Positions 584 through 45,912 of a stretch of DNA of 64,000 nt are shown here, one piece after another; position 1 is the stretch's first letter, and each line of letters starts with the position of its first letter. Source of the DNA: Candidatus Yanofskybacteria bacterium (GTDB taxonomy: Bacteria > Patescibacteriota > Minisyncoccia > 2-02-FULL-40-12 > GWA2-44-9); NCBI GenBank assembly GCA_020852375.1, contig JADZAY010000009.1, forward strand, positions 12,690 to 76,689, given 5' to 3'. Under the pieces are notes generated by a model. The model did no database searches. It saw only the letters and a list, made by a program, of their open reading frames with translations, and was not told where the DNA came from. A program made the translations under genes and the position numbers.

Positions 584-1068
584 GTGAGCGCTCCCGCCAG
601 CTTTTCGAGGCACTGCTCCATGCCCATCTTGGACATCTCGGCCATCTGTCCAGGCGCCCAACCTTTTTCCGTCACCGTAAGCCTGGTCCTACCATCACCG
701 AGGTCTTTGAATGTTACGATATGAATTTGGTTCTCGGGAAAATCGGATGGCATACCGACCGACGCAGGGGAGATTGTGTTTCCATCTTTATCCGCCAAGT
801 TGTGAACGTACTCTATCCGCTCCAGAGGAACAACCCGAAGATATCGCCACGTACTGTATTGCTCCGGAAATCCTAATTTTGGTGACGCCATACTGACAAG
901 CGAAACACCACCCTCACGGACATCCATCACAGCGGTCGGACACTCAAAATTGTCCGGGCCCCACCACTGCCGCAGCGCGTCAGACTCTGTCCAGGCGCGC
1001 CACACCTTCGCAACGGGCGCGTCGAACGTGTGAGTGAATACAAGGTCTTGCGTTGGCGCGTTCGTCAT
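577..1068 (-). CDS. SRPBCC superfamily protein, AHSA1 (activator of Hsp90 ATPase) domain
   Basis: 163 aa; MTNAPTQDLVFTHTFDAPVAKVWRAWTESDALRQWWGP is a typical AHSA1/SRPBCC N-terminus. Confidence 0.7.
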   Translation of the reverse strand: MTNAPTQDLVFTHTFDAPVAKVWRAWTESDALRQWWGPDNFECPTAVMDVREGGVSLVSMASPKLGFPEQYSTWRYLRVVPLERIEYVHNLADKDGNTISPASVGMPSDFPENQIHIVTFKDLGDGRTRLTVTEKGWAPGQMAEMSKMGMEQCLEKLAGALTQ

Positions 1069-1301
1069 ATGGTTATGATGGTGATTTCACTCTCAATTTG
1101 GCGGGCAGGATTGCCGGAACTTTGAACCGGCAAAACGAATAAATTTCGGTTTAGTTGATAAAAGTATACAGAAATTAAGGAAGATTTACAGAGAAAAACC
1201 AGAATGGTTTGAAATTCCCGATTTTGCTCAAAAAGTCTACTGAATATCAAAATGTCTAACCGAAGTGAGAAAAATTCTCACTTCCATTGCACAAACTGCA
1301 T

Positions 1302-2186
1302 TTATGACCCCTCGTGAGGCCACTGGCCTCGAGCGACCATGTTAATGGAAGTAATATGGGCATCAGAAGTGAGAATACTTACAATTGCCTTTCCAACTGC
1401 CGAAGGGGGTGTACAAAAAAGGTTTGTTTTTGAGTAGTCATAGCCAAAATTCTTACCCATCATTGAAACTGTATTCTGAACCACCCTTGAGTCATACATA
1501 CCAGTATCTACAATCCCTGGTCTTACATCTGTAATAAAAATTTTATCTTTATCGAGTTCAATCATTGCCGCGTTGGTAAAACGGCTGATTGAGCCTTTGG
1601 CGGCCATGTGCATACTTCCAGAAACAACAGAACGGATCGCGCTCATTGAGGAAACGATGCAAACTCGAGTTTCTTTTTGTTTACGGAATCGCGGAAGTAA
1701 CAAGCGCAATAAACTTACGGTGTTTTTTAAAACTGAAAGTTCTGCTTCGATTAATTCTTCAGATAAATCATCGATGAGCAAATACGGATTGTCGTCTTTG
1801 AGTTGAACCGTTCCCGCGCCCAATCCGACTGACTGAACCCAATACAGTGGCAGGTCGTTTGGAATTGATTCAACTAATTTTTCCAGAGCCGATATATTAC
1901 CCAAATCAACAGCAGAATATTCTACTTTTGCTCCAGAAATTTTTTCTTCTATCCATTTCTTAACAATCTGCAATTTGCTTTCAGTGCGAGCTACGATATG
2001 AACAATGGCACCAGCTTTGGCGCATTCAAACGCTGTGGCGGCACCAATATTTGCCTTGTATTCTTTTCCATCAATATCAACTAAAGTGTGCGACGGTTCG
2101 CCGGTCGTTATGTCTTTAAAAACAAAATCGACCGGTTTTATTCCAACTCCTGTTATGAGAATTCTTTTGTTGTTTAGATTATTCAT
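1302..2186 (-). CDS. short-chain dehydrogenase/reductase (SDR) family oxidoreductase, atypical
   Basis: Rossmann motif IGAATAFECAKAGAIVHIVAR and a PG..DT motif (RPGIVDTGM). The catalytic YxxxK appears replaced by HMAAK. The gene is markedly AT-rich relative to its surroundings. Confidence 0.65.
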   Translation of the reverse strand: MNNLNNKRILITGVGIKPVDFVFKDITTGEPSHTLVDIDGKEYKANIGAATAFECAKAGAIVHIVARTESKLQIVKKWIEEKISGAKVEYSAVDLGNISALEKLVESIPNDLPLYWVQSVGLGAGTVQLKDDNPYLLIDDLSEELIEAELSVLKNTVSLLRLLLPRFRKQKETRVCIVSSMSAIRSVVSGSMHMAAKGSISRFTNAAMIELDKDKIFITDVRPGIVDTGMYDSRVVQNTVSMMGKNFGYDYSKTNLFCTPPSAVGKAIVSILTSDAHITSINMVARGQWPHEGS

Positions 2187-2289
2187 AACCTGGTTCGAAT
2201 CCCTTCGGGGTTAACCTCATTTTATCAAAATTCTTTTTCAAAAAGTAGCGTAAAATAAGGATTTTCTACTTCTCATTTTTCAAAATTAC

Positions 2290-2377
2290 TGGCGGAGGGG
2301 GTGGGATTCGAACCCACGATCCCTTACGGGATGCCGCATTTCAAGTGCGGTGGAATAAACCACTATCCGACCCCTCC
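2290..2377 (-). tRNA. tRNA-Ser (anticodon TGA), long variable arm, CCA encoded
   Basis: Cloverleaf read by eye on the minus strand: acceptor GGAGGGG/CCCCTCC, anticodon loop cTTGAaa read as UGA, long variable arm, 3' CCA present. Confidence 0.8.
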
Positions 2378-2383
2378 ATTCGC

Positions 2384-2755
2384 CTACGCTATCCGCTTCC
2401 TCAGCCAGCTTCTCTCTAGATAGTGTTCTTCATAATGACAGTTCGGGCAGATCAATGCCAGATTTGCGAGATCATTATTACTCCTATCTCTGTCTTTATG
2501 ATGCACTTGCAAGATCTCTGGCTTGTCGTATCCGCACCGCTCACAAGTGCGCCCTCGTTCTCGCAAAAGCCGCATCTTCAGGGCCTTGAGCGCCGTCACC
2601 TTATCTCTTGGCCTATTCAGTTTATACCGTATACCAGCTCGCTGCTTGTTCGCGCATCTCTTGCTACAGGTCTTCTTGTTATCCCCAGACAGAATGGAAG
2701 CACCGCATACGGGGCAGAGGATCTCCTTCCTGCAAGATATGCCGTAGCAAGTCAT
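2384..2755 (-). CDS. HNH endonuclease (zinc-ribbon N-terminus)
   Basis: C-terminal HNH motif CERCGYDKPEILQVHHKDRDRSNNDLANLALICPNCH. The ORF-track extension to 3025 runs through tRNA-Ser(CGA) and is rejected. Start set at Met 2755, but a non-ATG start up to about 2830 (adding a CLVC..C Zn motif) is possible. Confidence 0.7.
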   Translation of the reverse strand: MTCYGISCRKEILCPVCGASILSGDNKKTCSKRCANKQRAGIRYKLNRPRDKVTALKALKMRLLRERGRTCERCGYDKPEILQVHHKDRDRSNNDLANLALICPNCHYEEHYLERSWLRKRIA

Positions 2756-2935
2756 ACTACAGAACGCTCGTCCGCCAGCTCTCTGCAACTCGACCGGGCG
2801 ACGGTATATCGGCGCAGCGCACACAAGGCAAGCAGTATTCGGCTTTCTTTGATATGGCTCGACCACCCATCCACTATACCATTTCGGAGGAGAATTGCCA
2901 AAAAACCAAATAATGATATACTTTTCTCCGCACAC

Positions 2936-3022
2936 GGAGGCGTGGCAGAGTGGTCTAACGCGCCGCACTCGAAATGCGGTTGGGGAGAAATCCCCTCGGA
3001 GGTTCGAATCCTCCCGCCTCCG
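2936..3022 (+). tRNA. tRNA-Ser (anticodon CGA), long variable arm
   Basis: Acceptor GGAGGCG/CGCCTCC, anticodon loop ctCGAaa, long variable arm, T-arm GGAGGttcgaatCCTCC. Confidence 0.85.
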
Positions 3023-3024
3023 CA

Positions 3025-3192
3025 AATGATCTTCGGAATGCCGTTTGGCATTGTGAAGATCATCCGCAAGAGATGTGGGGGATTCGAAGGGCGGACCGCT
3101 GCGACATCAGCTGATGTCGCCGGGAGCCCGTGCCCAGGCCGAGGCGAGCGACGGCGAGCCGAGAGCCGAGGGAGAATCCTCCCGCCTCCGCA
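3025..3192 (+). repeat. tRNA-3'-linked structured repeat (hairpin + GC-rich core + 19-bp copy of tRNA-Ser 3' end)
   Basis: Hairpin 3029-3062; core GGGGGATTCGAAGGGCGG..CGACATCAGCTGATGTCGCC..GGCCGAGGCGAGCGACGGCGAGCCGAGAG. GAATCCTCCCGCCTCCGCA at 3174-3192 is an exact copy of tRNA 3006-3024. Confidence 0.6.
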
Positions 3193-4243: not shown

Positions 4244-5245
4244 TTAGGGGCGCTGACGGGAAAGAACGTGCGCGTGAATATCTTTGACGAACCCGTCGCC
4301 GTTGAAGCACATCGTGGGAGGGACACTGTATCGCGCCCACAGGTGGAGAAAATTGTTGTGCGCACACGCACAAAGGTAGTCGAACTCCCATGCGAGCATG
4401 ATCGCGGGATTGTACTGCCCGCTTTCGATGTCCATCCCGCGAGGAAACCAGCGGGGTATACGCCCGAGACGGACGTACACGAGACCGTCGTGATGGCGAA
4501 GCCCACCAACCACAGTTCCGGGAATGAACTCGTTCCAGTGCCTGCCGTTCACTTCGCAAGCCGCGTAGAACACGACCTTATTGCCGACGCGGAACCAGTC
4601 GTGCGGACGACGCGCCGGGAACACCGGCTTCTTCTCGGCCTGCGTACAGAGCGGTAGGAGCACCCGGATCTTCTGGTCAACGACACGCTTCGCTCCGACC
4701 GACCGCGCGCGAGCCGCCACGAGTCCGGAACGGATCTCGCCCATAAGCGCCCCGGACGCATTCGGGAGAAAACACCTCGAATCGAAGAGGTGCTCCTCGG
4801 GGCTGACGCCGGAGACCTTCTGAAATTCGCACGCTCCGCTGATAGTGTAGTTGAAGCGCTGGCGATCGCCGGTGGTATGCTCACACCAACCGCAGACATT
4901 GAAGGTGGTCGCCCCAGCAGACCGCGCCCGCGACAGGCCGTCCATCGGTTCGATGGGGCCGTCGTGCCCATTCTCCACATACCGCCCGCGGAGTGGGAAG
5001 TGGGGATCCACGAAGCGCCGCGCCAGAGCGCGGAAATCGCTCGCCGTCTTTCCGTGCAACGCCTTCAAGAGCTTGTCCGCCCGCTTGATATCCTCCGCAT
5101 GCTCCTTGGCGCGATGTCGCCAGAAGCGGACCATCTGACGGATGTTTGCCTGCCCGGTGAACAGGACGTCGTGCATGGTCAGACAGGGGAGACGCCAGTC
5201 GTCGGGAATAAGCGCCCGGACTTCGGCATTGGTAAGGTGCTCCAT
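4244..5245 (-). CDS. hypothetical protein (333 aa)
   Basis: Long ORF. AGGAGG 6 nt upstream of ATG at 5245 (MEHLTNAEV...). No family recognised. Confidence 0.6.
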   Translation of the reverse strand: MEHLTNAEVRALIPDDWRLPCLTMHDVLFTGQANIRQMVRFWRHRAKEHAEDIKRADKLLKALHGKTASDFRALARRFVDPHFPLRGRYVENGHDGPIEPMDGLSRARSAGATTFNVCGWCEHTTGDRQRFNYTISGACEFQKVSGVSPEEHLFDSRCFLPNASGALMGEIRSGLVAARARSVGAKRVVDQKIRVLLPLCTQAEKKPVFPARRPHDWFRVGNKVVFYAACEVNGRHWNEFIPGTVVGGLRHHDGLVYVRLGRIPRWFPRGMDIESGQYNPAIMLAWEFDYLCACAHNNFLHLWARYSVPPTMCFNGDGFVKDIHAHVLSRQRP

Positions 5246-5383: not shown

Positions 5384-5557
5384 GCTCTGTGGACCTACGG
5401 GGAGTCGGCCTCGCCTCTCGGCGCGCCGCCGCGCACCTCGGGCTGGCCACCGCCTCACGGTGCCGCCGACTGGCGGCACATCGCTCCGGCGTTCGTCTCC
5501 CCGTATATATTCGCTGTAGCAATACGGACAACCCTTGAGGGTTGTCCGTATTGCTCT
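5384..5557 (-). repeat. tRNA-3'-linked structured repeat (24-bp copy of tRNA-Ala 3' end + core + hairpin)
   Basis: GCTCTGTGGACCTACGGGGAGTCG at 5384-5407 duplicates 5553-5576. Minus-strand core ACGGGGAGACGAACGCCGGAGCGATGTGCCGCC..GAGGCGGTGGCCAGCCCGAGGTGCGCGGCGGCGCGCCGAGAGGCGAGGCC. Hairpin 5519-5554. Confidence 0.6.
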
Positions 5558-5558
5558 G

Positions 5559-5629
5559 TGGACCTACGGGGAGTCGAACCCCGACTTCATCCATGCCATG
5601 GATGCGTGATACCGCTTCACTATAGGCCC
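5559..5629 (-). tRNA. tRNA-Ala (anticodon GGC)
   Basis: G3:U70 in the acceptor (GGGCCTA/TAGGTCC). Anticodon loop atGGCat. Confidence 0.85.
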
Positions 5630-40300: not shown

Positions 40301-40373
40301 CCGCCCTTAGCTCAGTTGGTAGAGCTGCTCCCTCTTAAGGAGAAGGTCGTAGGTTCGAATCCTACAGGGCGGA
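40301..40373 (+). tRNA. tRNA-Lys (anticodon CTT)
   Basis: Acceptor CCGCCCT/AGGGCGG. Anticodon loop ctCTTaa. Confidence 0.8.
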
Positions 40374-40378
40374 CCGAT

Positions 40379-40424: not shown

Positions 40425-40555
40425 GGCCCGCTGTAGGGTTTGAAGCCCGGAGCGATGTGGCGGCAGCGGCCGACACCGCGAGGGCCGGAGCCCGGAGGCG
40501 GACGGCTCAGACCGGGGGCCGTTCGACCGGAGGGTGAATCCTACAGGGCGGACCA
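40425..40555 (+). repeat. tRNA-3'-linked structured repeat (core + 19-bp copy of tRNA-Lys 3' end)
   Basis: CTGTAGGGTTTGAAGCCCGGAGCGATGTGGCGGCAGC..GAGGGCCGGAGCCCGGAGG..GACCGGAGGGT, then GAATCCTACAGGGCGGACC 40536-40554, which equals 40357-40375. Followed by hairpin 40560-40590. Confidence 0.6.
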
Positions 40556-42322: not shown

Positions 42323-42405
42323 CACTTGGCCACTCCTTATTCTGCATGTATGAAGGAAGTGGCTGGCCAAGTGTCCTGAGCGCATAGGCGCGAAGGACTA
42401 CAGTG
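42323..42405 (+). promoter_or_regulatory. conserved hairpin + -10 module (copy 1 of 3) upstream of tRNA-Val(GAC)
   Basis: CACTTGGCCACTCCTTATTCTGCATGTATGAAGGAAGTGGCTGGCCAAGTG hairpin, then TCCTGAGCGCATAGG..., then TACAGT 11 nt before the tRNA. Confidence 0.4.
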
Positions 42406-42478
42406 GTTGCGGTATGCGCGCTTAGCTCAGTTGGTAGAGCATCTCATTGACGTTGAGAGGGTCGTAGGTTCGAGTCCT
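42406..42478 (+). tRNA. tRNA-Val (anticodon GAC)
   Basis: Acceptor GCGCGCT/AGCGCGC. Anticodon loop ttGACgt. Confidence 0.85.
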
Positions 42479-42496: not shown

Positions 42497-42871
42497 TTAG
42501 TTTTTTAGTCTCTTCCCCCGATAGTGAGCCGCTTCGGCGAGGAATCGTTCGTCATCTTTTGTGCTATGCCTGACGGCGTGGCAATTCGCACAGAGAAGAG
42601 TGCATTTCAGGATCTCTGCCCGGATGCTCTCCCAGCTCTTGTTCGCGACATTACCGAGAGTGAAGTCTTTCTTTTGTGGATCAAGATGATGGAATTGAAG
42701 GGCGGCCTGATGGCCCCTCCAGCCACAATCCACGCACTTTCCGCCGAGGATGCGTATGGCAGCCGCCTTGGTTCGATAGCGCCGGATCTTGGTGTTGCAG
42801 GCCCCGCATCTGGCGCGCATTTTCCCCTGGTAATCGTTGTACTCTTTGCCGCATAGTTTACAGATCGTCAT
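42497..42871 (-). CDS. HNH endonuclease (free-standing, zinc-ribbon N-terminus)
   Basis: CKLCGKEY..CGAC N-terminus. HNH core CVDCGWRGHQAALQFHHLDP...LLCANCHAVRH. Paralogous in architecture to the HNH gene at 2384-2755. Confidence 0.75.
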   Translation of the reverse strand: MTICKLCGKEYNDYQGKMRARCGACNTKIRRYRTKAAAIRILGGKCVDCGWRGHQAALQFHHLDPQKKDFTLGNVANKSWESIRAEILKCTLLCANCHAVRHSTKDDERFLAEAAHYRGKRLKN

Positions 42872-42945
42872 GCCTTGAGTATAGCAAAATGCGCTCTACC
42901 AAGAGAGATTGCAGGGGGACGGATTTTGTGATACCGTATACACAT

Positions 42946-43223
42946 GCCGCGGTAGCTCAGTGGTAGAGCGCAGCCCTAAATCTTTGGGGCTTTCCGCAGG
43001 AATGCGGATTGAGAAATCGGGTGAATTCGGGGGAACTCCGGAACGGTCTGGACAATCCCGAGCCGAGCTCCGTGGGGTATCCAAAACGGAGAAGGTGTAG
43101 AGACTAGCGGGTGAGCCCAACAATACTCCCGCACAAGCGCCCGACCTCCAGAACGGAGGATGATATAGTCCAATTCAGCTTCGGAAGAGGCTGGCGTCGG
43201 GGGTTCAATTCCCTCCCGCGGCA
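42946..43223 (+). tRNA. intron-containing tRNA, most likely tRNA-Phe (anticodon GAA); exons 42946-42977 and 43184-43223
   Basis: 5' exon GCCGCGGTAGCTCAGTGGTAGAGCGCAGCCCT and 3' exon GAAGAGGCTGGCGTCGGGGGTTCAATTCCCTCCCGCGGCA together give a 72-nt cloverleaf with anticodon loop ctGAAga. Identity rests on the splice-junction assignment, including an unusual G37. Confidence 0.7.
42978..43183 (+). ncRNA. group I self-splicing intron (Azoarcus-type) in tRNA anticodon loop
   Basis: 206 nt. Internal guide GGGGCT (42986-42991) pairs with exon end AGCCCU with a U.G pair at the splice site. P2 hairpin CCGCAGGAATGCGG. Core GAAGGTGTAGAGACTAGCGGGTGAGCCC closely resembles the Azoarcus tRNA-Ile intron P7 region, with ATATAGTCC as the P7 3' strand. 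The intron ends in G. Confidence 0.75.
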
Positions 43224-43224
43224 C

Positions 43225-43267
43225 AAAGTAAACTAAAACCGCCCCTCAGGGCGGTTTTAGTTTACTT
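43225..43267. terminator. perfect 20-bp hairpin after tRNA-Phe
   Basis: AAAGTAAACTAAAACCGCCC-ctca-GGGCGGTTTTAGTTTACTTT. Confidence 0.5.
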
Positions 43268-43411
43268 TCCTGCTCGCGGCCGGGAATTGAAGGGCATCGA
43301 GCCGAGCGAACTGCTTCGCTCGGTGAGAGCCCGGGCTCCGGGGGAGCATCGAAGCGTCCGCCGAAGGCGGCTGCGAAGATGCGGAGGAGGAGAATTCCCT
43401 CCCGCGGCACA
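43268..43411 (+). repeat. tRNA-3'-linked structured repeat, unit 1 of tandem pair (divergent core + 19-bp copy of tRNA-Phe 3' end)
   Basis: AATTCCCTCCCGCGGCACA at 43393-43411 equals tRNA 43207-43225. 5' flank GCGGCCGGGAATTGAAGGGC is roughly complementary to the T-arm. Followed by hairpin 43414-43449. Confidence 0.55.
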
Positions 43412-43452
43412 GAAGCAAAAGCCGACCCCATGTGGGGCCGGTTTTTGCTTTT

Positions 43453-43588
43453 ACGTATCGTGGCGGGAGGGAATTGAACGCCGGAGCGATGCGGTATCAG
43501 CTGATATCGCCGCGAGGCGGTGGCCAGCCCGAGCGTCGCGACGGCGCCGCGAGAGGCGAGGCCAATGACTGACCCCTCCCGCGGCACC
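43453..43588 (+). repeat. tRNA-3'-linked structured repeat, unit 2 of tandem pair (canonical core)
   Basis: CGTGGCGGGAGGGAATTGAACGCCGGAGCGATGCGGTATCAGCTGATATCGCCGCGAGGCGGTGGCCAGCCCGAGCGTCGCGACGGCGCCGCGAGAGGCGAGGCC, then CCCTCCCGCGGCAC (a partial copy of the tRNA 3' end). Followed by hairpin 43595-43623. Confidence 0.6.
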
Positions 43589-43594
43589 GGTACA

Positions 43595-43623
43595 CAAAGC
43601 CCCCGAGAATCGGGGGCTTTGGT
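43595..43623. terminator. hairpin terminator (bidirectional, also serves rplS)
   Basis: CAAAGCCCCCG-agaat-CGGGGGCTTTG. Confidence 0.5.
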
Positions 43624-43631
43624 TTGGAGCA

Positions 43632-44048
43632 TTACTCGGTGGCAGCCTCTTCGGGTGCCGATTCCTCGGCCTCGACCGCTTTGGCGGCGACCGCCTCGGC
43701 GCGGGTCTTCTTGCGGATCTCCTTGGCGCTCTTCTCGCGGAGGTAGTACATCTTCGAGCGGCGGGTGCGGCCGGTCTTTACGACCTCAACCTTCTCGATG
43801 GAGGGGAGGCGGATGGGGTAGACCTTCTCGACGCCATATCCTCCGGCTGAGCGGCGAACGGTGATGGTGCCGCCGGCCTCGGTGCCATGCTTGCGGGCGA
43901 TGACGATACCCTCAAAAACGCTCGCCTTGCCCTTTTCGCCCTGCTTGAGCTTCTGGTGGACGCGAACGGTCATACCAACGGAAACACCCGTGAAGCGGTC
44001 TTCAGGGTTATGCTTTGCCGAGAATGCAGAAATGACGTGTTGAGACAT
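43632..44048 (-). CDS. rplS: 50S ribosomal protein L19 (with Ala/Glu-rich C-terminal extension)
   Basis: Core RFTGVSVGMTVRVHQKL..GIVIARKHGTEAGGTITVRRSAGGYGVEKVYPIRLPSIEKVEVV. Confidence 0.9.
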   Translation of the reverse strand: MSQHVISAFSAKHNPEDRFTGVSVGMTVRVHQKLKQGEKGKASVFEGIVIARKHGTEAGGTITVRRSAGGYGVEKVYPIRLPSIEKVEVVKTGRTRRSKMYYLREKSAKEIRKKTRAEAVAAKAVEAEESAPEEAATE

Positions 44049-45221: not shown

Positions 45222-45330
45222 TGGCGGAATTATTGTAACTCTCCGCGCCTGCCTGCCGGTAGGCAGGCCCATGCGCTCGGGGCACTTGGCCAGCCACCCC
45301 CTTCATACATGCAGGATAAGGAATGGCTAA
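45222..45330 (-). promoter_or_regulatory. conserved hairpin + TACAAT module (copy 2 of 3) upstream of the NUDIX gene
   Basis: Minus-strand reading: CACTTAGCCATTCCTTATCCTGCATGTATGAAGGGGGTGGCTGGCCAAGTG hairpin, then CCCCGAGCGCATGGG.., GCCTGCC-hairpin, then GAGAGT-TACAAT-AATTCC. ATG 40 nt downstream. Confidence 0.4.
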
Positions 45331-45332
45331 GT

Positions 45333-45455
45333 GTGGGCGGTAGAGGACTCGGCTTTGTCTCTCGCGTCGCCGTTGCGACGCTCGGATTAGCCACCGCCTC
45401 GCGGCGCCACCTACTGGCGGCGCATCGCTCCGGCGTTCGAGCCTCTACCATTCGC
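45333..45455 (-). repeat. tRNA-3'-linked structured repeat (core + 19-bp copy of tRNA-Val(TAC) 3' end)
   Basis: Minus-strand reading: GGTAGAGGCTCGAACGCCGGAGCGATGCGCCGCCAGTAGGTGGCGCCGCGAGGCGGTGGCTAATCCGAGCGTCGCAACGGCGACGCGAGAGACAAAGCCGAGTCCTCTACCGCCCACAC. The 19-bp copy at 45333-45351 equals 45502-45520. Hairpin 45457-45500 separates it from the tRNA. Confidence 0.6.
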
Positions 45456-45502
45456 TAACTGTATCAAATACAACATGCCAAATGGCATCTTGTATTTGAT
45501 AG

Positions 45503-45576
45503 TGGGCGGTAGAGGACTCGAACCCCTGACCCTCGCTGTGTAAAAGCGATGCTCTACCAACTGAGCTAACCGCCCG
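45503..45576 (-). tRNA. tRNA-Val (anticodon TAC)
   Basis: Acceptor GGGCGGT/ACCGCCC. Anticodon loop ttTACac. Confidence 0.85.
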
Positions 45577-45660
45577 GAATTATTGTAGCCCCGCGAACCC
45601 ATGTTCTCGGGACACTTCGCCAGCCAACTCCTTCATACATACAGAATAAGGAGTGGCGAA
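45577..45660 (-). promoter_or_regulatory. conserved hairpin + TACAAT module (copy 3 of 3) upstream of tRNA-Val(TAC)
   Basis: Minus-strand reading: CACTTCGCCACTCCTTATTCTGTATGTATGAAGGAGTTGGCTGGCGAAGTG hairpin, TCCCGAGAACATGGG.., then GGGGC-TACAAT-AATTCC directly abutting the tRNA 5' end. Confidence 0.45.
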
Positions 45661-45790
45661 GTGTGGGGGGAGCCTGGATTCACCCTCCGGTCAGGCCTGC
45701 GCCGTCGCTTGGCCTGCCTTCGGGCTCCGGCCCTCACGGTCGCGCCTGCTGGCGCGACATCGCTCCGGGCTTCGAATCCTATCACTCCAA
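45661..45790 (-). repeat. tRNA-3'-linked structured repeat (Lys-type core + diverged copy of tRNA-Ile 3' end)
   Basis: Minus-strand reading: GATAGGATTCGAAGCCCGGAGCGATGTCGCGCCAGCAGGCGCGACCGTGAGGGCCGGAGCCCGAAGG..GACCGGAGGGTGAATCCAGGCTCCCCCCACAC. Hairpin 45791-45836 separates it from tRNA-Ile. Confidence 0.55.
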
Positions 45791-45838
45791 CTACTACTTG
45801 AAACCGACCCGCCGCAGGGGCGGCTCGATTTCAAGATG

Positions 45839-45912
45839 TGGGGGAGCTAGGATTCGAACCTAGGACCACCAAGGTATAAGCTTGGCGCTCTAACCAGCTG
45901 AGCTACTCCCCC
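45839..45912 (-). tRNA. tRNA-Ile (anticodon TAT)
   Basis: Reverse complement folds as GGGGGAG-UA-GCUC..CCAAG-CUUAUAC-CUUGG..CUCCCCC-A. The loop CUUAUAC gives anticodon UAU, which is unusual. Confidence 0.7.

Follow-up and report, generated by a model that had tools for sequence, protein, structure and literature searches.

Structured repeat units behind gene 3' ends in Patescibacteria: a tandem array at an intron-containing tRNA-Phe gene and related copies at other genes

Genes for transfer RNA (tRNA) and transfer-messenger RNA (tmRNA) are classic integration sites, and Tn7 and CRISPR-associated transposons home to conserved safe-harbour sites. The described elements that come closest to the repeats reported here are, on the one hand, the integrative elements of tRNA and tmRNA 3' ends (tyrosine-integrase islands and prophages), which keep the gene intact, are bounded by a copy of the gene end, have a repeat that starts in the T-loop and form tandem arrays, and, on the other hand, the miniature inverted-repeat transposable elements (MITEs; Correia elements, Rickettsia palindromic elements, REPINs), which are short, structured, multi-copy, non-coding and strain-polymorphic and often lie in terminators or create them. 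We found these same traits in a family of structured repeat units in a 64,000-nucleotide stretch of Candidatus Yanofskybacteria DNA (assembly GCA_020852375.1, contig JADZAY010000009.1, positions 12,690 to 76,689; hereafter the window), where two such units stand in tandem behind an intron-containing tRNA-Phe gene. Compared with integrase islands, these units are inserts of only about 110-190 bp without cargo that hold an extra, inverted copy of the target and a covarying core. The best explanation, to which we give about as much credence as to all others together, is that they are small non-autonomous structured mobile elements landing at gene 3' ends, almost only in Patescibacteria; our confidence in any particular mechanism is low. 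The original prediction had named three options (miniature tRNA-targeting mobile or integrative elements mobilised in trans, a tRNA-linked structured RNA family, or a mimic of the tRNA 3' end), of which the first fits best, considering the empty and filled orthologous sites, the tandem arrays and the lack of a nearby enzyme gene.

Layout, fold and targets of the repeat family

The units have a common layout in which the end of the gene (X1) is followed by an optional hairpin (T1) with a short spacer, then by X', a core of about 110 bases, X2 and the native flank, always in the orientation of the target gene and directly behind its functional 3' end. X' is an inverted copy of about 13-25 nt of X1, and X2 repeats the final 18-25 nt, or more, of the gene in direct orientation; X' covers the first 13-25 nt of this copied segment (X) plus 2-3 nt further upstream, and X2 reaches the functional gene end. 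According to the predicted pairing, X' can join either with X1, giving a long hairpin behind the gene, or with X2, closing the junction of the core. The minimal case (locus L096) consists of the gene end, an immediate fold-back X', the core and X2. Members of subfamily C stand behind tRNAs and share only about 5 nt of end sequence with them, incorporate the last bases of the tRNA into their long hairpin and end in ..GACCACAA regardless of the tRNA. The idea that every unit can close into a long stem is thus right for the units of the T-arm type and fails for subfamily C, the closing stem of which has only about 5 bp.

A covariance model (R1) built from 107 sequences, 102 of them from other genomes, was run on the window with filters off and finds six units (54-87 bits, E <= 3e-15; the next match has 10 bits), all following a tRNA on the same strand (Table 1), and a 20-nt probe from the core of unit 2, the second unit behind tRNA-Phe, has 3 matches in the window against 0.04 expected by chance. 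Ten of the 16 window tRNAs are without a unit. The core had been predicted beside tRNA-Ala, tRNA-Val, tRNA-Ser, tRNA-Lys and tRNA-Ile, and R1 recovers it at Ser(cga), Ala, Lys, Val and Ile, with the correction that the valine carrier is tRNA-Val(tac) and not tRNA-Val(gac). Seven units had been counted as one family; six of them belong together, and the first unit behind tRNA-Phe (unit 1), which has the same layout with a different core and was not detected by R1 in the window scan, represents a second, analogous family. The unit at Ser(cga), which was outside the R1 training set, has compensatory replacements in stems that do not vary in other units (GGC..GCC for GCC..GGC and CCG..CGG for GCG..CGC). 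At Ala(ggc), X2 is an exact 24-nt copy of the tRNA end plus 6 nt of trailer, and at Lys(ctt) X2 is followed by CCA and the gene copy by CCG.

The expectation of further copies in other genomes was borne out. A species-representative genome collection was searched with the pattern CCGGAGCGATG-N7-AG-N9-CCGYGAGG (37 positions, about 20 specified bases), which matches at least 118 genome loci, nearly all labelled as metagenome-assembled genomes (MAGs) of Patescibacteria or the candidate phyla radiation (CPR). The lineages among the matches listed are Kaiser-, Yanofsky-, Adler-, Uhr-, Taylor- and Nomurabacteria, Paceibacterota and Parcubacteria, and the few matches with non-CPR MAG labels may be due to mis-binning. 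R1 finds 130 units in 100 sources (0.8 Mb of sequence), including dense clusters of six units in 8 kb in L084 and of six in L086. Viral contigs searched with the same pattern gave no copies, and an all-against-all clustering of the open reading frames (ORFs) within 3.5 kb of the units in the 118 loci gave no recurrent ORF, only housekeeping genes and one spurious ORF running across the unit.

RNAalifold and the single-sequence folds agree on a three-way junction with a closing stem made from X' and X2. The 5' domain consists of N-CC/GG-N, an internal loop GGA/GA, GCG/CGC, a two-base bulge and a 7-8-bp hairpin with the loop AGYA, and the 3' domain of two short helices with tandem G-A/A-G positions and the tip ..GC-GACG-GC... 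A classic kink-turn in the 5' domain was rejected by eye, the GGA/GA internal loop having a one-base bulge and not one of three. In the R1-fitted alignment of the 130 units, 95.6% of the cells are standard pairs, and both sides change in 17 of the 18 pairs (492 cells). Covariation scores 0.58, compared with 0.15 in shuffles (0/500 reach the observed value) and 0.05-0.08 with slid partners. Since a fitted alignment leans to its own structure, a 34-pair structure was also counted on a plain MAFFT alignment of 35 units, in which 92.9% of the cells are paired and 25 of the 34 pairs change on both sides (95.5% paired and 11 of 12 pairs covarying in the 3' domain). The compensatory covariation of the hairpins that had been read from the window copies is therefore supported on both alignments and, with 93-96% of cells paired, the units are, as first proposed, a genuine repeat family under selection for its secondary structure and not a decaying remnant. 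On the gene-sense strand G-U wobbles exceed A-C combinations (56 vs 12), which indicates that the fold is selected on this strand and is compatible with either RNA or single-stranded DNA. Finally, 21 columns are invariant in 107 copies, mostly in the internal loops, which in the 5' domain are G-A-rich; such invariance suggests a conserved partner that would bind there.

These features also speak for a host-serving structured RNA, which would be co-transcribed with the upstream RNA or reached by read-through and released by 3' processing, with X' pairing with the gene end or X2 as a switch or cap and the core recruiting a conserved protein; the repeats would then exist because the RNA must match its neighbour. 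Indeed, besides the conservation of the internal loops across CPR lineages and the sense-strand structure, the orientation to the gene is fixed, the tRNA hairpin and the core lie too close together in subfamily C for a separate promoter to fit between them, and the 2-3 nt by which X' reaches past the start of X2 resemble a toehold. This explanation is partly compatible with mobile elements, and the conservation of the core needs a partner under either; taken as the whole account, however, we consider it possible but doubtful, given the mixed targets and the polymorphism presented below.

As regards the targets, a tRNA on the same strand ends less than 250 nt ahead of 89 of the 120 units in the pattern-matched set (37 anticodons), and 92 of the 130 units in the R1 set stand directly behind a same-strand tRNA; an opposite-strand tRNA upstream of a unit was never found. 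Four units follow rpsR (S18), where X2 comprises the terminal 24 nt of the gene, stop codon included, and, in L112, differs from the gene copy at synonymous positions only. There are three units behind rpsI (S9), two behind a topoisomerase-like zinc-ribbon C-terminus (X2 and its continuation are in frame, with differences mostly at third codon positions) and two behind tmRNA genes (Rfam RF00023, 106-110 bits). As the same core and flank geometry occur behind tmRNA and protein genes, the rule is the gene 3' end and not the tRNA, and the tRNA-centred parts of the original prediction (targeting of tRNAs, mimicry of their 3' end, a substrate for the CCA enzyme or RNase P) find no support. This mixture of tRNA, tmRNA and a few protein genes is also at odds with a dedicated host RNA. 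Mimicry of the tRNA 3' end was rejected in particular on the grounds that X2 behind protein genes is coding sequence with a stop codon and that CCA is not significantly enriched (it follows X2 in 12/39 and the gene copy in 7/39, with 6 vs 1 discordant cases). Derivation of X2 from mature tRNA with post-transcriptional CCA was rejected as well, the 6 vs 1 discordance being suggestive but not significant and CCA-encoding alleles existing in relatives.

The direct repeat has a median length of 19.5 nt (46 loci); it can be as short as about 5 nt (subfamily C), measure 15-31 nt, or reach 47-55 nt when the terminator is included. Two classes of repeats can be distinguished: most stop exactly at the tRNA 3' end, and some extend across the entire terminator (47-55 identical nt) or make up tandem units that are identical. 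Four orphan units (L023 7039-7147, L108 5789-5899, L049 2282-2390 and L018 315-423) have an X2 like a tRNA-Ser-type 3' end with CCA (..CTCCGCCA), and ARAGORN and Rfam find no tRNA or other RNA gene upstream of them; the upstream tRNA may have escaped detection, perhaps through an intron, or the unit may have parted from its target.

Target-matching segments that switch with the target around a scaffold that stays are also what would be expected of a programmable guide for a recombinase, nuclease or reverse transcriptase encoded in trans, in which the core would be a protein scaffold and X' (antisense) and X2 (sense) would read both target strands, like the bridge RNA of IS110 or the tandem spacers of TIGR systems. 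The place of X' between conserved parts (the spacer mini-hairpin and the core) and the choice of conserved safe-harbour gene ends agree with this proposal. We nevertheless rate it unlikely: an associated protein gene is missing within 3.5 kb in the 118 loci, the intact X1 next to each unit would be matched by such a guide as well, Rfam has no guide or scaffold family that fits, and no motif like a protospacer- or transposon-adjacent motif was seen across the tRNA, rpsR and topoisomerase-like targets (the sequence 5' of the X2 start is GGTTC in tRNAs and GGGA or GGGAC in rpsR and the topoisomerase-like gene), the non-tRNA targets being too few for a firm verdict. A link to TIGR-Tas was rejected, TIGR units being 36 nt long and the system unrelated.

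Site polymorphism, arrays and possible movement between targets

An identity of 100% in RluA assigns the window to a Candidatus Yanofskybacteria MAG. The syntenic rluA-rplS loci of four relatives (L119, L120/L121, L122 and L123; 76-86% RluA identity) were compared with the window, and the empty sites that the original prediction proposed to look for in related strains do exist, as orthologous tRNAs lack the unit in L119, in L122 and partly in L123. L119 has no units at tRNA-Ile(tat), Val(tac), Phe and Lys(ctt), and L122 has none, including at Val(tac) and Ile(tat). L123 has one unit, behind Val(tac), with an empty Ile(tat) site, and in L120/L121 a unit follows both Ile(tat) and Val(tac), and unit 1 follows an intron-less tRNA-Phe. 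In L119, where the Val(tac) site is empty, the tRNA joins the rluA start codon directly, without terminator; in L123, where the site is filled, T1, spacer, X', core and X2 stand in this order between the tRNA and the rluA start, and the insert amounts to about 170 bp. This comparison of an empty site without terminator and a filled site with T1 shows that T1 arrives with the element and that the native flank follows X2. The block of unit 2 (spacer-X'-core-X-T3) is missing in L120, where the hairpin T2 is conserved and abuts rplS; insertion in the window and deletion in L120 both fit.

These comparisons weaken the case for a host-serving RNA, given that close relatives manage without the unit (L119 has none at four orthologous tRNAs), that only 6 of the 16 window tRNAs carry one, that identical tandem copies and decayed copies of X2 or X' exist, and that a terminator-like hairpin stands ahead of most units. 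They also bear on the proposal that the repeats are scars of integrase-driven islands or prophages, that is, attL/attR-like repeats with short remnants left by repeated integration and excision at a tRNA 3' end. Direct repeats of the tRNA 3' end that start in the T-loop and stand in tandem at one tRNA, together with a large serine recombinase near the syntenic region of L122, would suit such scars. The empty-site comparison, however, gives the whole insert as a block of about 170 bp, the inverted copy X' is always present, no integrase is nearby, and the same covarying structure of about 85 nt lies between the repeats at more than 100 loci and more than 37 targets. We therefore rejected the integrase-scar explanation as highly improbable, since a conserved covarying fold lies between the repeats at dozens of different targets.

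Several observations concern the neighbourhood in the relatives. In L119 (regions 4925-5004 and 4610-4700), tRNA-Val(tac), with its CCA encoded, overlaps the rluA start codon and tRNA-Ile(tat) runs straight into a GIY-YIG ORF, with no terminator between either tRNA and the next gene; the units loosen this very tight packing of tRNAs and genes by bringing a hairpin. The tRNA-rich neighbourhood holds a LAGLIDADG-like ORF and the large serine recombinase in L122 (6183-8607), and the small GIY-YIG ORF adjoins tRNA-Ile(tat) in L119 (4689-4934), L120 (3705-3947) and L122. The tRNA-rich rluA-rplS region is a hotspot for selfish elements. Tandem or clustered units were seen at L085 7253-7511, L086 3066-3440 and 6307-6894, L014 2386-2771 and L084 4224-7959, with identical tandem copies in L085 (period about 148 nt) and in L086; such clusters suggest amplification by unequal recombination or through multimeric intermediates.

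Units at different targets can be nearly alike. The unit at Val(tac) in L123 has T1, spacer and core (including an identical 3' hairpin) in common with the window unit at Ile(tat), and in each of them X' and X2 fit the local tRNA. Likewise, cores are 88-94% identical, variable stems included, between units at His and Arg, Asp and Ser, and Tyr and Pro tRNAs. Near-identical cores at different targets with matching flanks mean that the flanks change faster than the core diverges, either by movement to new targets with target-templated flanks or by gene conversion between units. At tRNA-Ile, in the window and in L120, X' fits the resident allele and X2 the allele of the other genome; this pattern, seen in these two cases only, would fit an arrival of X1 together with X', X2 being the displaced original end.

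If the units are mobile elements, they would be mobilised in trans by host machinery. Spread to the same target between genomes would proceed by homologous recombination, the conserved gene serving as left arm and X2 as short right arm; recombination within the conserved gene would explain that the repeat usually ends exactly at the functional gene end, and units would be lost or multiplied when X1 recombines with X2. Flanks at a new target would be templated from that target itself, since the X'/X stem and the target duplex agree in sequence; an exchange of partners between this stem and the target duplex, or a template switch at the hairpin, is plausible. The gene would be kept intact and given a terminator, which would make the site a safe harbour. 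A bolder version, which we regard as a doubtful though conceivable one, is a self-programming homing device: the X'/X2 stem would copy the target duplex, the element, folded as RNA or single-stranded DNA, would swap partners with the strands of the gene 3' end, and a widely conserved enzyme of Patescibacteria binding the G-A-rich junction would insert or copy the element, rewriting both flanks. Sites at the ends of essential genes would then be chosen in a new, guide-like manner with the enzyme acting in trans.

A number of points weigh against mobile elements or against parts of the proposed route. (i) The apparent phase of the insert differs, being T1-spacer-X'-core-X at the Val(tac) site and spacer-X'-core-X-T at the site of unit 2. 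(ii) Loss by deletion between X1 and X2 would give the same pattern of presence and absence, and gene conversion between units could mimic retargeting. (iii) Homologous recombination alone cannot make X' and X2 at a new target. (iv) No transposition intermediate, excised form or enzyme was observed, and mobility follows from presence and absence at 76-86% RluA identity. (v) Subfamily C is almost without a duplicated gene end. (vi) In a position-matched count, X' matches the target at 6.8 and X2 at 7.8 of 10 positions, so that X' matches no better and the count lends no support to its selection as a guide; an impression that X' was the better conserved of the two came from a biased score and was rejected on this count. 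(vii) The core is conserved across phylum-level lineages far beyond usual decaying insertions, which implies a function or a binding partner.

The array behind tRNA-Phe and other features of the window

The positions of the features are given in Table 1. The intron-containing tRNA recognised in the original prediction is a tRNA-Phe(GAA) with a group I intron (Rfam RF00028, Intron_gpI, 42968-43193, 72 bits in the Rfam scan of the window), and its exons, read by hand, give the anticodon stem CAGCC/GGCTG and the loop CU|GAAGA, with the intron at position 33/34. An intron at this position of tRNA-Phe(GAA) is on record for Patescibacteria (PMC13011429). ARAGORN misses the gene in the window, and detects the orthologues in L119 (6396-6468), L120 (6389-6461) and L123 (8549-8623) as ordinary intron-less tRNAs of 73-75 nt; the intron is therefore polymorphic among close lineages.

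Table 1. Positions of the tRNA-Phe array and of the units matched by covariance model R1 in the window
Feature	Position	Strand	Remarks
tRNA-Phe(GAA) with group I intron (target gene)	42946..43223	+	Rfam match and hand-read cloverleaf
Hairpin T1	43225..43268	+	20-bp arms, 100% complementary, 4-nt loop; directly 3' of the tRNA end
Unit 1 (second core family)	43276..43411	+	X' 43276-43291, core 43292-43392, X2 43393-43411
Hairpin T2	~43412..43453	+	Terminator-like; after the tRNA-end copy of unit 1
Unit 2 (widespread family)	43463..43588	+	X' 43463-43479, core 43480-43569, X2 43570-43588
Hairpin T3	~43593..43622	+	Terminator-like; last element before the rplS stop codon
Unit behind tRNA-Ser(cga) (2936-3023)	3077..3185	+	R1 74.9 bits
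Unit behind tRNA-Ala(ggc) (5558-5629)	5395..5503	-	R1 73.2 bits
Unit behind tRNA-Lys(ctt) (40301-40375), subfamily B	40433..40547	+	R1 54.3 bits
Unit 2 behind tRNA-Phe, R1 span	43467..43575	+	R1 87 bits, E = 1.6e-25
Unit behind tRNA-Val(tac) (45502-45575)	45339..45447	-	R1 87.3 bits
Unit behind tRNA-Ile(tat) (45838-45912), subfamily B	45670..45782	-	R1 72.6 bits

The three long hairpins announced behind this tRNA are all present. T1 is terminator-like, with an A-rich 5' arm and a U-rich 3' arm, and in the minimum free energy (MFE) fold X1, T1 and X' form together a single long hairpin of -60 kcal/mol. X1, the source of the copies in the units, is the last 18 nt of the tRNA (43206-43223, from T-loop to discriminator). 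The 19-mer AATTCCCTCCCGCGGCACA (43207-43225) is repeated exactly as the X2 of unit 1 and in degenerate form as that of unit 2, so the statement that each unit ends in a copy of the tRNA 3' end is accurate for both, with this difference in quality. The accompanying statement, that the units start with a complement of the T-arm, applies fully to unit 2, where X' (GCGGGAGGGAATTGAAC) is the reverse complement of the T-loop and the 3' strand of the T-stem (tRNA positions 53-69), and in part to unit 1, with its only partly complementary X'. The core of unit 1 has two hairpin domains and an MFE fold of the same Y shape as that of unit 2, a three-way junction, and an orthologue with 93% identity stands behind the intron-less tRNA-Phe of L120/L121. 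The array is closed by the convergent rplS gene (43632-44048, minus strand; Pfam PF01245, L19), for whose protein an exact look-up gave no record. A simple promoter scan of 42850-43700 gave no promoter, promoter and terminator scans being uninformative for long hairpins with A/U flanks.

A second repeat family was noticed at 42324-42412 (plus strand), 45268-45340 (minus) and 45598-45670 (minus) of the window and at 4835-4935 of L120, where it replaces the 5' domain of the Val(tac) unit. It consists of a long imperfect hairpin (ACTTGGCCACTCCTT..AAGGAGTGGCTGGCCAAGTG) followed by GTCCYGAGCGCATRGGC.. and ends in ..CTACAATAATTCCG right before the 5' end of the next tRNA; its TACAAT looks like a -10 box, and the repeat may be a cassette of terminator plus promoter. 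Between tRNA-Val(gac) and tRNA-Phe lies a Cys-rich ORF of 124 aa (42497-42871, minus strand) with two CxxC pairs, an HH and a ..CANCH.. motif, reminiscent of free-standing HNH nucleases and with no Pfam match at E <= 0.001. Positions 1001-3000 form a low-GC island (41-48% vs 57% overall) that holds tRNA-Ser(tga) (2290-2377), the only window tRNA with an encoded CCA, followed by AT-rich sequence; this island may be foreign DNA or an assembly join.

Significance and comparison with known systems

The genomes of Patescibacteria are among the smallest of bacteria, and yet many copies of the units are tolerated in them, at 6 of 16 tRNAs in the window and, in one MAG, as a cluster of six within 8 kb. 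As the units can be acquired by any tRNA, tmRNA or ribosomal-protein gene, they change the annotation of intergenic DNA, tRNA ends, terminators and apparent tRNA fragments. Their invariant core implies an RNA- or DNA-binding partner common to the radiation. Should each insertion write its flanks from the target, the units would represent a new, non-disruptive and homology-defined choice of site, of interest for the biology of mobile elements and as a possible tool. They are also handy markers of recombination and gene flow between uncultured lineages.

The family is previously undescribed and belongs to no family tested. At gathering thresholds, the scan of the window with Rfam 15 gives only tRNAs and the group I intron, and scans by E-value, made on 43200-43640 and on L016 and L039 as the best-scoring members, give nothing relevant, so that the search of the core against Rfam matched no family; the literature, searched also by literal motif strings, gave no description. 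The remark in the original prediction that no described element of this kind was known can accordingly be maintained.

From the integrase islands the units differ further by the lack of an integrase within 3.5 kb (118 loci) and by the range of targets, as one core family serves 37 anticodons, tmRNA, rpsR, rpsI and the topoisomerase-like gene. Unlike MITEs, they have no shared, element-borne terminal inverted repeats, as X' and X2 differ at each site and equal the end of the neighbouring gene; their 'target duplication' is long and variable (5 to >50 nt) and not of a short fixed length, they are strictly tied to gene 3' ends in position and orientation, and no parent insertion sequence is known. 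A conventional MITE was therefore rejected, the terminal repeats being copied from each target and the duplication varying in length.

The RNAs that combine scaffold and guide (bridge or seek RNA of IS110/IS1111, omega RNA of TnpB/IscB, homing CRISPR RNAs of CRISPR-associated transposons) resemble the units in joining a structured scaffold to target-matching segments and in aiming at gene ends or tRNAs, and in omega RNA the guide is the flank next to the element end. They differ in that the ORF clustering shows no adjacent recombinase, TnpB or Cas gene for the units, in which the guide-like segments have 13-25 nt and are mutually complementary; no Rfam match to IS605-orfB or HEARO was found at the locus or in the window. 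The attC sites of integrons and the attP hairpin of CTX phage share with the units a strand-specific fold, an inverted-repeat stem around a variable centre and the preservation of structure over sequence, but their stem is borne by the element and recognised at a fixed site by IntI or XerCD, whereas the stem of the units copies the upstream gene end. Diversity-generating retroelements are common in CPR, and the pairs of variable and template repeats in these retroelements recall the units by the repetition of a gene 3' end just downstream and by a hairpin after the gene end; compared with them, the repeats of the units measure 18-25 nt, are mostly identical without adenine-specific differences, have no reverse transcriptase or avd gene found nearby, and belong to tRNA and housekeeping targets.

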